DNA of 64,000 nt from Camelus dromedarius (lineage: Eukaryota), in contig NC_087436.1 of assembly GCF_036321535.1 (NCBI RefSeq), positions 20,400,001 through 20,464,000 on the forward strand. Reading direction: 5' to 3'. This document shows positions 36,901 through 42,900 of this stretch, piece after piece. Position numbers and translations under genes: made by a program. Numbering within the stretch: position 1 is the first letter of the stretch; each line of letters begins with the position of its first letter. The notes under the pieces are model-generated. The model was not told the origin of the DNA. It did not search any database and worked only from the letters and a program-made list of their open reading frames with translations.

Positions 36901-39900
36901 TTTAAATAATAATGTTCTAATTGTTGGAACTTATAATTAGGTTTGTATACTTTAGAAAGCAATTTTACCTGTTTGCAACTGTGTTCTTAGATGGAACACC
37001 ATCAAAAACAATGACTCGGTCTGCGAGATACGTGGCCATGATGAAGTCGTGTTCTACAATGAAGGCTGTCTTCTTGGCATGGAGAATGAAACTAAAACAC
37101 ATGATTTTGAAATCTTTTAGTTTGGTATCACCAAATTTTCAAATGCTATATTTAATCAAAAGTAATACTCTTACCGTTTCACAACTCGAGCAGCCATTAA
37201 TCTTTGCTCAGAATCCAAATAGGCAGACGGTTCATCAATTAAATAGACATCAGCAGGTTTGCCCAAACAAAGAGCTAAAGCTACTCGCTGCAGTTCACCA
37301 CCAGATAATGTCTGCACCTATTTGCACAAGAAGTTCAACAAACCACGTAGAGACACCAAAGATTAAAGTAATAAAATGATACAACAAAAATTATCTTAAA
37401 GTACCTCTTGATCAATGATGTTTTCAATTTGCAGAGGCTTCATCACATCAGTTACAAACTGTGGGTGTGTGTAAGCATCTCTTATCTTCTCATGTAGTAG
37501 CTGTCGAACACTTCCCTGTTTTTAATGAAACAAGTATCAACATTTTATTTCAGTACACAACTCTTTGAATTATGAACCTAGACAAAGTTAAACTTCTCAG
37601 CAAAGGTGTATCAATTTGCCACTAACAGATATCTATAGTATTTTTATGCTTATCCATCAGCTATGCCATGTTTCCAGACTTTTTAAGTTAAAAACCCATC
37701 ATTTCCACCAAGTAAACAAAAAAACACAATAATCTTAAAATTTGAAAGTAGTAAATAATGAATGTTTCAGGGAAGAAATCATTTGAGAACAGGAATAATT
37801 CTAGAGGTCAACATAGGTATCAAGTAATCTTAGGCAATCAGTAAGATAACACAAAACGCACAATAATGCAATAGGGATGAATTTAAGATGTCTCTTATTT
37901 GTTACCTGAGGAGAGGGCTGAGTTTGAGAACTTAAAAGCTAAGCTTATAGAAAGCATCAATGATACAATTTTTATTGTAAGCCACACCATCTCAAATACT
38001 CTTAATATGAATACTGAGGTACTGAGTGTAGATACTGGAGTAAATTCTTTGCAACACCTGCAGAAACCAGCCGTTAATAAACATCATAATGTTTTAACGC
38101 TCATCCACCCTGTAACATGTGCCACTGATTGACTGATGGGCTGAATAATAGAGGCTCCACCATTTTCTGGAACCTACCAATGTATGAGGTTCCAGTTTCT
38201 CCACATCCTCACGAATACTTGTTACTGTCCTTTTGATTTAAGTCATCCTAGTGGGTGTGATATGGTATCTCACTGTGGTTTTGATTTGCACTTCCCTCAT
38301 GACTAATGACGTTGAGCATCTTTTCATGTGCTTATTGGCCATTTGTGTATTTTCTTTGGAAAAATGTCTATTCAAATCCTTAGCCCTTTTAAAGTGAGTT
38401 CTAAGAGTTCTCTGTATATTCTGAATACAAGTACCTTATTAGGTGCAAACGATTTCTCCAGCTCTGTGGATAGCCTTTCACTTTTCTGGTTTTACTTGTA
38501 GCACAAAACACATTAGATTTTTAAAGATTTTGGAAAAAGATGCCAAACAGACTTTAACAAATTAATCACCAAGTCACCCAAATCTGGGTACAGTTGTGTT
38601 TCCTCAGGGTCCCTATCACCGAGATACGGCTGAAGCTTTCCTTCATCCAATTATGCAGGTTTTTACAAGTAATTTGCAAGTTTTCACTTGTAATACAAGT
38701 ATTTAATAGTAACAACATATAAGTATACTGCAGATAGATTAAAATATTTTCTTTCGAACAAAATTACATAATTTTATATTACTGTCTTATGATATTTGCT
38801 GAAATAATTCACACAATTTACTGCAGTGTTTTGGGACTACTAGGACAATACGTTCCTGTCTTTTTACATTTTTTCTAGCCTCTTGTCATTCCAAAGTTTG
38901 CGTGCTTTTCTGATAACAGAGGATGCACATTCTTCTGATTGTTTTGCCTTCTGCATATTCTCTAATTTGTAAATTGTGAATTTCTTGTCCTTTATCCCTT
39001 TGCATATTATTGGACCTAATATTTGGAAAATATAACCATTCTTTAACTAAAAGTTCCCTAAGTTCTGATAACTTAATGTTTTAATTTGCCTTTGCTTGGT
39101 ATACAGTATGTGCATTTACAACAGAAATCCCAGGAAGTAGATACAGTGCTAATTTCCAGCACCATTTGATACTTTTTTGTAACATCGTCACGTACAGAAC
39201 CATCCAGTCACTTCTGTTATAGTCATGTATGGCCAGTGGCTTCACTTTTTTAAGACTGTAACAACAAGCAGATGAATCTGAATTTGACACCACAATGGGT
39301 GTGTGTTGTCAAAAGTATTCTTATATCCTGAACATCTTTCCACCTCAGGATGACAATTCCACTGTTGTTTTCTTGTGACACCATTTCACCCCTTTTTAGT
39401 GGATGGGACATAACATCTTCTGGTATAAACTATTATGCCACACAGTCCCAACCATACGAGTTTTCAAACTCAAAAATTTTAGGGCCAATTTGTAGCTTTT
39501 GTAGAAGTTATCTTATATACAATGTACATTCTTCAATAATTTTTCTGCAAGCTCACTGCAAACATTTTGAGCTAATAATTTGCCTGACTCCATTAGTCTC
39601 TTGTCCAGAATATATTTTTATTGACCACGTATAACCTTTGGTTGAACACAGATAATTTTTTTCCATATTTGTGTGTCTTATTTGGTATATACTGTCTACA
39701 TATAAGCCTTCCTCTTCAAGGAACCACTGTCTCACTGGTTATGATACCTGAGCCCGGTGAAAAAAATTTGATAATTTTCAGTCAAAGTGTTAATCAATGG
39801 TAATATTTTTCCAAGCTTATCACCTCTTTCAATCATTTCATTATTTGCAAAGTGCAAATTTGATATTAAAATGATTATGAGACATTATGGTATGTGGCAA

Positions 39901-42900
39901 TGTGAAATTGTAAAGGGATCTTTTGACCAATATTTAGTAATAGATATTGATTTCAATAGACTCATCCAAACTAGAAGAGCAAGGAATTCTTCAATTTCTT
40001 CAGAAGTAGGTTCCCACCTCTTCATTCGACTATATTCCACATTTAGATGTTGAAGTAATTTTTGTTGCGCGTACCTATATGCCTCCTTTACCAGGTTTAT
40101 TATTTCGTCATCTAAAAATAGCAAAAGAACTTCACCTGGGCTGCTATCATGAGGTAATTCTGTCAGAGGTCCACTTTTTCCTGTGATTATAAATGACCTT
40201 TGTCTGCCAGTAAACCCTTTCCACTCAGTACTGTCCAGTGCACCATCATCCTCATCATCTGTTTCTTCCTCTCCTTCTACAACTCATTGTTCTAAAATCT
40301 CCTGTTTTCAACTTCAAGATCATTCTCCTCATTCTCTGAGCTTGAACTTGACAAAATTTTATTTATATGTCTTCTTCTGGATCACCTCATTGTCACTACT
40401 AGTGTCACTTTCAACTGTGTTTTTACATTGTCTGACAGACAGTGTAAAGATATGAAAAACCACAGAACCACACTTGAAAGATGTATAGACTTTGAGACAC
40501 AGAATAAAACTGCCAAGCTGAGTCAAGCAGAGCAGGTGAACGAACAGAGTACCATTCTAAACAACTGCTTATCTATCAGTTCTACTAATTGGATCATGGA
40601 TCACTCTTGAGCTAATGAATGTCAAAGTAACACCACAATGTCAAGACTATTCTGTTACCTGAATTTATTCCATGCAGAATAATGACACTCCAAGAAGAAA
40701 TAAAACTGTAAAGAGGCTGAAAATTGAAAATAAGAAAATTTTTTTTTGACAATTCCCATTATACTGGAAAAAGATTAATTATAAGCACATACACTGTTAG
40801 TGCGTCACACTGCGGTGAAGTGTGAATTTGGGCCCTGCAGGAAACACACCCAACCCACAGTGGGTGATCAACCTGTTAAAAAGTTTTCCTAGTAGTGGAA
40901 ATGAATTAAGGACTGTAGTAGTCCTAATATCTTCCTTAGCACTTTCATTATGCCTGTACAGAAACTAATTTGGAGAAGGATTTTGATACAGTTTAAGATT
41001 AATGCTCTATGTAGATATAAGCTTTTCTTTAATAACAAAATAACAGAGTAACTCACCGTTGATTTGGGACTGATTTTCTGTGGCTTATAACTGACATTTA
41101 GAATTGGTACTTCCCCTGCAAAATAATGCAAATAAGACACTGAGAACTGCCCAGACCTTTAAAGTTTACTATGTGGAACAGGGTAAAAAGACTCAACATC
41201 ACAACTGTACCTCCTTCATCAGGTTTAAGTCTTCCAGCAAGCATTCTGATAAATGTCGTTTTACCAGTACCTGGCAACACAACATAAAACAAACTGACTT
41301 GCAAGATGCTTCACATTTAGAGTAAGTCACTATGCACTACTGGGTTTTCACTGAGAAATTAGTTTTAAAGATACACACTGGCACTGATGAATTCTGGAAG
41401 TTATACAGAAAAATATCTGAACACTGATGATTCATCTCTCAAGTATCATTTTATACTAAATGGCAAGAATACAGACTAGAGATTATAGTGGCCATTTTAA
41501 TAAATGGTGGGTCTATAAAGTATAAGTCTTGGGTTTGATCTTAAAAGATTTATTTAGCCAAATTATCAATGCATACAATTTACTGTTAAGACAGCACAAT
41601 ACTGTTATGATTGATACCATCATCAAAAGTCCATTTATATGAAGTATTTAATTGCAACCTAGCTCAAAATTTCTCCATTAACTAATGACTAATATATTGC
41701 AACAATCATCAAAAATTTTTTCTTCTACAGTTTTGTACCCTGTAAGTACACAATTCAAATCTTCTTTTTTTTAATCATGAAAGCAATACCAGATATTTGG
41801 TACTCAAATTCATCTCACAGCCATATTTACAATGGCAATCTAATATTAAAAAATGCTGGTAATAACAACTGTTTACAAAGTTAGATTAGCCTGAATTTAA
41901 AATAAGAAAAGCTCCAAATGGAGGAGTGCAAGGAAAACATTTTAAACTAGACTGCTTCTGAATTACCGATTTATCCTTTCTTTCCTAGTCAGTTTCCAGG
42001 ATGAATAAATGCTGTCTGTACCAACTTACACACAGAAAAACCAGTTTAGAAAAAAAAATCTTATTTTCACTGAAAGTTAACTAAAACAAAATAAGAAATA
42101 TGAACTTGATTGAATGACAGTGAGACTAAACCATATGTTGTCACAAAAATGTTAACTAGACTGAGCAATGTATGATATGAATTCATTCCAGCTCTCAAAC
42201 CTATAACTGAGTCAAAGTTTTTCAGAGTAATTGGAACTCAGTCACTGGATAAATAGAATAGACTTTCAAATATCACAAATTAAGAAAAACTCACCATTTT
42301 CCCCCAACATCACCATGATTTCAGAATCTGTAAACTCTCCAGCTACAATTCCTAGCTCAAACTCTCCCATCTTTTTCTTCATTCCAGGGTATTTATACAT
42401 ACACATCTTTTTAACTTCTTCTTCATTTGCTGTCTCAGCCACTTTAAAAACAAGTGATGCATCTCTGAATCTCAAGTTTTCTGTTGGAACGTAGCCATCC
42501 AAAAAAATGTTTATGCCTGACAGAAAGTTATTGATGATAGATTAGTAAAGATCAATTCAAGACTGAACTTTTTCCACAGCAAGAAATTATCATATGAAAG
42601 TCAAAACCCTAGGCTCTCTTGGGAGCAATCTGTGCATAGATTTATATTGCTATAGATTTACAACATGCACTGTGACAACATGGTGTTTCATGTACCTAAT
42701 GCAAGTTTAAATAATTTATGCATACATATGTCCTATATATACAAACACATATACACAAGCACATCTTTTCATTACTACTGATTTTTATATTTTTTCCATC
42801 ATATTTTATGTGGAAGCCTATGATGCCATTTTTTTCTGTAGTTTTAAATCAAAAATTGTTATTTTTTTCTAAAAATGACAAGTAGGTAATATTTTCATAG

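Follow-up and report, generated by a model that had tools for sequence, protein, structure and literature searches.

The piggyBac transposase binds terminal and asymmetric subterminal repeats, excises its element through hairpin intermediates using a triad of catalytic aspartates (DDD) and inserts it at TTAA. The active elements of Trichoplusia ni (IFP2) and Myotis (piggyBat) both encode this triad together with a cysteine-rich tail, and IFP2 has a 13-bp terminal inverted repeat (TIR) beginning CCC and a 19-bp asymmetric subterminal repeat. Across the superfamily, TIRs are 12-19 bp long and start C[C/A/T][C/A/T] (PMC5381638). Active piggyBacs have been described from Hymenoptera (PMC13416829), and horizontal transfer has been argued for lemur and bat elements (PMC2997546 and PMC10162687), with few such transfers reported in mammals other than bats (PMC10162687). 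Here we analyse a 64-kb stretch of dromedary (Camelus dromedarius) DNA (the window; NC_087436.1, positions 20,400,001 to 20,464,000), in which an intron of ABCE1 holds a real, complete and dead piggyBac, a further well-preserved member of this known kind.

The element spans positions 38554-40879 of the window, with 2,318 bp enclosed by two TTAA sites that can be read directly from the sequence (Table 1). An initial annotation had described both target-site duplications, a terminal repeat matching at 10/13 positions, a near-perfect subterminal repeat and two intact ends. Both duplications are present and the terminal 13-mers do agree at 10 of 13 positions. The ends are intact in that both duplications and both terminal Cs survive, but the repeats differ at the other three positions. 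The subterminal repeats are identical in 17 of 19 aligned columns, with one gap, and are placed asymmetrically, 24 nt inward on the left and 14 nt inward on the right. IFP2 has the same arrangement of a 13-bp terminal and a 19-bp asymmetric subterminal repeat, although its spacers differ (3/31 nt compared with 14/24 nt in the element) and its ends begin CCC.

The 10/13 terminal match is weak alone. It is reached by 7 of the 11,212 TTAA pairs that lie 1.5-3.5 kb apart in the window (the other six are A/T-rich), and the weight therefore rests on the subterminal repeat. We aligned the outer 60 nt end to end for 6,000 pairs sampled from these 11,212, a sample that took in the element's own pair. 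The mean score was -6.3 (s.d. 4.1), and the element, at 12.5, was the sole pair at its level. The pairing of the element's ends is not due to chance.

Between the ends lies a decayed transposase gene, colinear and on the minus strand as the annotation had proposed. One minus-strand frame matches Pfam PF13843 at E=1.9e-16, and three of seven pieces match it. Frameshift-aware alignment to a 559-residue bee protein (Anthophora P0002) is colinear over residues 2-559 at 52.8% identity (282 of 534 codons), crossing 5 stops and 11 frameshifts; identity to Osmia P0010 is 53.8%. The PF13843 match and the P0002 alignment exclude the possibility that the locus lacks piggyBac homology. The same alignment confirms the catalytic changes that had been predicted. 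All three positions homologous to DDD can be located, but only one Asp, that of the DNFY motif, is intact; the first is Ser (DE to SE) and the third has gone with a seven-codon deletion after DYN, a pattern that fits piggyBac ancestry but not activity. The predicted C-terminal cysteine domain is recognizable, aligning to P0002 residues 512-552, but it is degenerate, with four of six Cys remaining and two frameshifts. Where homologues carry Met the element reads CTG (40442-40440). The start codon has thus probably been lost, and we place the start at 40442 from homologue N termini. Net coding loss relative to four homologues is 41-53 bp. A 21-bp tandem duplication (2.1 copies, 38649-38694) lies in the 3' untranslated part.

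The presence of TTAA on both sides, a full-length DDE_Tnp_1_7 transposase (now a pseudogene) and a cysteine-rich C terminus place the element in the piggyBac superfamily, whose members encode, in a single open frame, a transposase of about 550-600 aa. Active autonomous members have an open frame, an intact triad and matching TIRs; with 5 stops, about 11 frameshifts and two Asp lost, this gene cannot work. The element is dead, whereas IFP2 and piggyBat, whose triad and cysteine-rich tail it shared ancestrally, are active. Its best match in the Protein Data Bank (PDB) is the piggyBat transposase (E=3.6e-13), with that of T. ni also matched, both distantly; a profile of the element's group matches PDB 9c0f and 6x67 at 6e-70 and 1e-39. 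The description of the locus as a near full-length, once-autonomous and now dead piggyBac is supported by these results.

The insertion lies inside ABCE1, as annotated. This gene is on the minus strand, an exon at about 41210-41270 matches solved ABCE1 structures, and translation of the window places twelve coding exons before the element, which directly follows the twelfth. The host intron, which is presumably intron 13 if ABCE1 has one non-coding first exon, measures 3,541 nt with the element and 1,219 nt without it. We consider the element very probably to be a neutral fossil of an autonomous cut-and-paste piggyBac, without present function. Its transposase would have bound the terminal and subterminal repeats and excised the element through hairpin intermediates, and the element would have been inserted at a TTAA of ABCE1 intron 13, in the sense orientation. 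The insertion may have been tolerated because splicing removes it together with the intron, and would have decayed neutrally since. The element points to no new mechanism or host function.

We next consider the relatives of the transposase. An initial protein search returned eight proteins, of which all the named ones are insect. Among the best 120 of the 437 matches to a search seeded with the bee protein P0002, 29 carry a species name and all of these are arthropods. We built a tree from 43 proteins chosen from the matches and from the element itself, whose breaks were read as X. In this tree the element is sister to 10 proteins (support 100/100), eight of them named, all from Hymenoptera and including the vespid Polistes, and two unnamed. 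That group joins Dufourea P0004 at 100/99 in a group of 14 rows. As judged by sequence, the closest named relatives of the element are hymenopteran transposases. Those of Anthophora (P0002), Osmia (P0010), Dinoponera (P0003) and Polistes (P0011, P0012 and P0017) are 50-54% identical to that of the element over nearly the whole length, and Dufourea P0004 is 47% identical. From its identical first residues and its length of 601 aa, P0004 appears to correspond to Duno-PB-1 of Dufourea novaeangliae, an element of 2,302 bp with CACGT ends; the ABCE1 element is likewise about 2.3 kb with CA-type ends, but has CAGGT. Set against the hymenopteran piggyBac-like elements as a whole, it is mammalian and dead, with a CAGGT end, and no member is an obvious donor.

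A profile-free search of 1.84 billion representatives with a 131-aa open stretch gave, in the best 150 of 417 matches, identities of at most 58% and no further copy of the same family. Relatives with flanking DNA were found in metagenomes at 6 loci from 273 candidate stretches; all were distant (34-44% identity) and offered neither informative ends nor close similarity in DNA. Relatives were found in none of 214 candidate stretches from viral contigs and none of 53 from prokaryote genomes. Identity with piggyBac1_Mm was set aside by eye, from published primers alone.

A second copy of the family did emerge from a short-protein search, in which one of three matches, P0126 from Logan, is identical to the element at 157 of 217 codons. 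The two agree at 89 of 118 codons where P0126 follows the transposase frame and at 68 of 99 where it does not. Because P0126 also matches out of frame, the homology is at the DNA level and P0126 represents another decayed member of the same family; because the two identities are similar, there is little sign of protein selection. P0126 is a mosaic of reading frames from a dead copy and carries a PF13843 tag even though part of it is out of frame. It retains the first catalytic Asp. Two of the three sequences agree at 110 in-frame positions, and at 82 of these the family residue is the bee residue.

The two copies allow the extent of decay to be estimated. In a simple simulation, copies that agree at 72% of codons have each accumulated about 0.07-0.08 changes per site, and a count of 5 stops is reached at about 0.08 changes per site (0.04-0.15 being compatible). 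The end repeats show 4 mismatches in 32 positions and one gap. From these three noisy measures, decay is likely to be 6-10% per copy, or roughly 30-70 million years at the mammalian rates that we assume. About 11 frameshifts in 1.65 kb would, given the indel rates we take as typical, point to the upper end of this range. The decay leans toward insertion after the placental orders split, without showing this, and its low value leans mildly against a eutherian-wide age.

We propose that the family probably entered mammals horizontally, from an arthropod lineage that most likely stood close to Hymenoptera. The decay of 6-10% per copy somewhat favours entry after the main placental orders had split. 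Several observations weigh against this history. Predicted-protein databases hold open frames and hide most dead vertebrate relatives, and our sample of relatives was seeded from a bee protein, such that sampling accounts in part for the predominance of Hymenoptera among the neighbours. In the tree, the element branches beside the hymenopteran group, as its sister, rather than within it, no insect protein is close enough for a donor (the best are at 54-60%), and a comparison of 269 proteins gave none markedly closer to the element than the bee ones. The age is noisy, and the identity to P0126 is biased upward, both through the aligner and because P0126 is a prediction free of stops.

The family itself may already be known. 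A serious possibility, though short of an even chance, is that the element belongs to Looper or a Looper subfamily and is a full-length copy of this autonomous, human-catalogued piggyBac fossil. It would then perhaps exceed the library consensus, which we take to be about 1.56 kb. Looper is presumably spread placental-wide, and this sits poorly with a decay of 6-10% per copy, below the 15% or more that we assume for repeats common to all placentals. Human ABCE1 intron 13, by our assumption about 1.6 kb long, is also too short to contain the element. Nevertheless, Looper is the sole name that we take to be of autonomous type among the human piggyBacs of Repbase (LOOPER, MER75/A/B and MER85; PMC5753468), and it is said to carry subterminal or inner inverted repeats at both ends (PMC12324416), like the element. 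Both are mammalian piggyBac fossils with such repeats, likened here by description rather than by sequence. Whereas none of the 531 human Looper copies has intact ends (PMC4625184 Table 1), the element has both, and its decay seems to be lower than a placental-wide repeat would be expected to show. A complete copy outside human would thus be new information and, if the element is Looper, would supply the ends missing from all 531 human copies.

A somewhat smaller chance attaches to the element representing an uncatalogued family, and a slightly smaller one again to a lineage family that some library already lists under a different name. The literature that we searched, which lacks most subscription papers and all repeat databases, yielded neither an insertion at the ABCE1 locus nor a Looper sequence, and four terminal motifs of the element were absent from it. 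In the available parts of PMC9538788, PMC2874221, 10.1101/2023.04.26.538406, 10.1101/2022.12.28.522108 and PMC8605555 there was nothing on the element's family.

The ends of the element had been taken as unusual for reading CA...TG, and this is not supported. Both begin CA, which the superfamily motif allows (PMC5381638). CAC ends are common in bee piggyBacs (PMC10140906), and among the terminal 5-mers of hymenopteran elements CACGT occurs 79 times, CACAT 20 times and CAAAT never (PMC13416829 Table S1). CA-type ends are normal for the hymenopteran piggyBac group, and we rejected unusual ends as a ground for novelty. Past the first two bases the ends diverge, one reading CAGGT and the other CAAAT. 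The A at the third base of the latter fits the motif; the G of the former falls outside it, yet is present in two hornet elements.

These elements, Vecr-PB-1 of Vespa crabro (2,337 bp) and Vema-PB-1 of Vespa mandarinia (2,335 bp), are the only two with a CAG start among the 539 rows with headers in PMC13416829 Table S1. Both have CAGGT at either end, TTAA, TIRs of 14-15 bp and decayed open reading frames. The ABCE1 element, compared with them by its 5-bp end and its length alone, shares CAGGT at one end, TTAA, a decayed frame and a near length, its 2,318 bp being what is left after the net coding loss. The element could thus belong to a separate, lineage-restricted family shared with Vespa hornets, through transfer between wasp and mammal or from one source into both, and the vespid proteins within its sister group agree with this. 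We regard such a shared family as unlikely. The likeness to the hornet elements is limited to five terminal bases and overall size, and many members of the group measure 2.2-2.5 kb. A single change separates CAGGT from the frequent CACGT, and CAGGT could have arisen twice; the other end of the element reads CAAAT. A search of the PMC13416829 supplement for longer motifs of the element came back blank, which is uninformative since its content is a gapped protein alignment with a few DNA records.

If the family is a separate one, the element records that a piggyBac from an arthropod source invaded a mammal. In its fullest form, which we consider rather unlikely, the proposal is of a family outside human-centred libraries that passed horizontally from wasps or their kin into a non-bat, non-primate mammal about 30-70 million years ago (at the assumed rate), possibly the same family as the Vespa fossils. 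An uncatalogued insect-to-mammal transfer would, if true, be a rare and datable one outside bats.

It is very improbable that the element has been domesticated or exapted, as an alternative ABCE1 terminal exon like that of CSB-PGBD3 or as regulatory sequence: its sense orientation, an acceptor-like tract at 40432 near the transposase start and a polyA-like ATTAAA at 38707, past the transposase stop, fit the PGBD3 'exon trap' layout (PMC2268245), but the probable loss of the start, 5 stops, about 11 frameshifts and the loss of two catalytic Asp, together with an in-frame identity to P0126 that barely exceeds the out-of-frame identity, argue against it. The acceptor at 40432 is also out of frame with the upstream ABCE1 exon, and splicing at its AG would join that phase-0 exon to two codons and then a stop. 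Domesticated PGBD genes have an open frame under purifying selection and usually lack TIRs, a description that the element does not match. PGBD3, in intron 5 of CSB/ERCC6, is likewise a sense-oriented piggyBac in an intron of an essential-type gene, but it keeps its open frame and makes a fusion protein. All or part of the stretch occurs in 20 of the 24 sequencing runs listed, labelled as two coded organisms and one metagenome. Two RNA runs contain 0.73-0.74 of the words of the stretch; these are explicable by intronic pre-mRNA or DNA carry-over and we did not use them as evidence of expression.

Relative to the initial annotation, the hymenopteran kinship, the second copy P0126 and the hornet lead are new. 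The annotation had also suggested that the element could help to rebuild an ancestral transposase, a purpose that a single copy carrying about 16 disabling lesions serves poorly by itself. With both ends and the whole gene, the element can help to complete a repeat-library consensus and can serve as a presence/absence marker in ABCE1. It is otherwise an ordinary kind of fossil, notable mainly for having transposons of bees, wasps and ants as its closest named relatives.

Table 1. Features of the piggyBac element and of the flanking ABCE1 exons, in window coordinates
Feature	Position	Strand	Basis
ABCE1 exon downstream of the host intron	37405..37515	-	Translation
TTAA target-site duplication, 3' end of element	38554..38557	.	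Sequence reading
3' terminal inverted repeat of 13 bp, differing from the 5' repeat at 3 positions	38558..38570	-	Inverted-repeat search, end alignment
Inner palindrome, 5-bp arms, 4-nt loop, arms identical to those of the other end	38576..38589	.	Sequence reading
3' subterminal inverted repeat, 24 nt inward of terminal repeat	38595..38612	-	Inverted-repeat search
Remnant of the piggyBac transposase gene with 5 stops, about 11 frameshifts and probable loss of the start	38774..40442	-	Frameshift-aware alignment; start placed from homologue N termini
C-terminal cysteine-rich domain, 4/6 Cys remain, crossed by two frameshifts	38783..38927	-	Alignment to P0002
7-codon deletion junction, third catalytic Asp lost; Asp three residues on kept	39215..39216	-	Alignment to P0002
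Second catalytic Asp (DNFY), intact, preceded by a stop	39510..39512	-	Alignment to P0002
First catalytic position, Ser for Asp; Asp in second copy P0126	39734..39736	-	Alignment to P0002, comparison with P0126
5' subterminal inverted repeat, 14 nt inward of terminal repeat	40830..40848	-	Inverted-repeat search
Inner palindrome, 5-bp arms, 3-nt loop, overlaps terminal repeat	40853..40865	.	Sequence reading
5' terminal inverted repeat, first bases CAGGT	40863..40875	-	Inverted-repeat search
TTAA target-site duplication, 5' end of element	40876..40879	.	Sequence reading
Twelfth ABCE1 coding exon, preceding the host intron, with a phase-0 end	41057..41115	-	Translation

Rfam and tRNA searches of the window gave no match. 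The host intron also contains, on the minus strand about 120 nt from the 3' end of the element, a short decayed stretch (38100-38435) whose translation we take to resemble the C-terminal part of LINE-1 ORF2. Convergent with ABCE1, a 403-codon open stretch on the plus strand (23839-25047) is presumably the last exon of OTUD4, and further exons lie near 16400-16680 and 21100-21400. A GC-rich stretch at 59900-61200 probably represents the CpG island of the ABCE1 promoter together with the first exon, near which, from the synteny that we assume, a head-to-head neighbour gene would be expected. Self-BLAST of the window returned a single 52-bp repeat pair and no repeated young SINE, which is unusual for most mammals but would fit a camelid, given that SINEs other than MIR are reported to be nearly absent there (PMC8605555). 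An upstream ABCE1 intron carries a (GT)23 microsatellite at 53822-53867.

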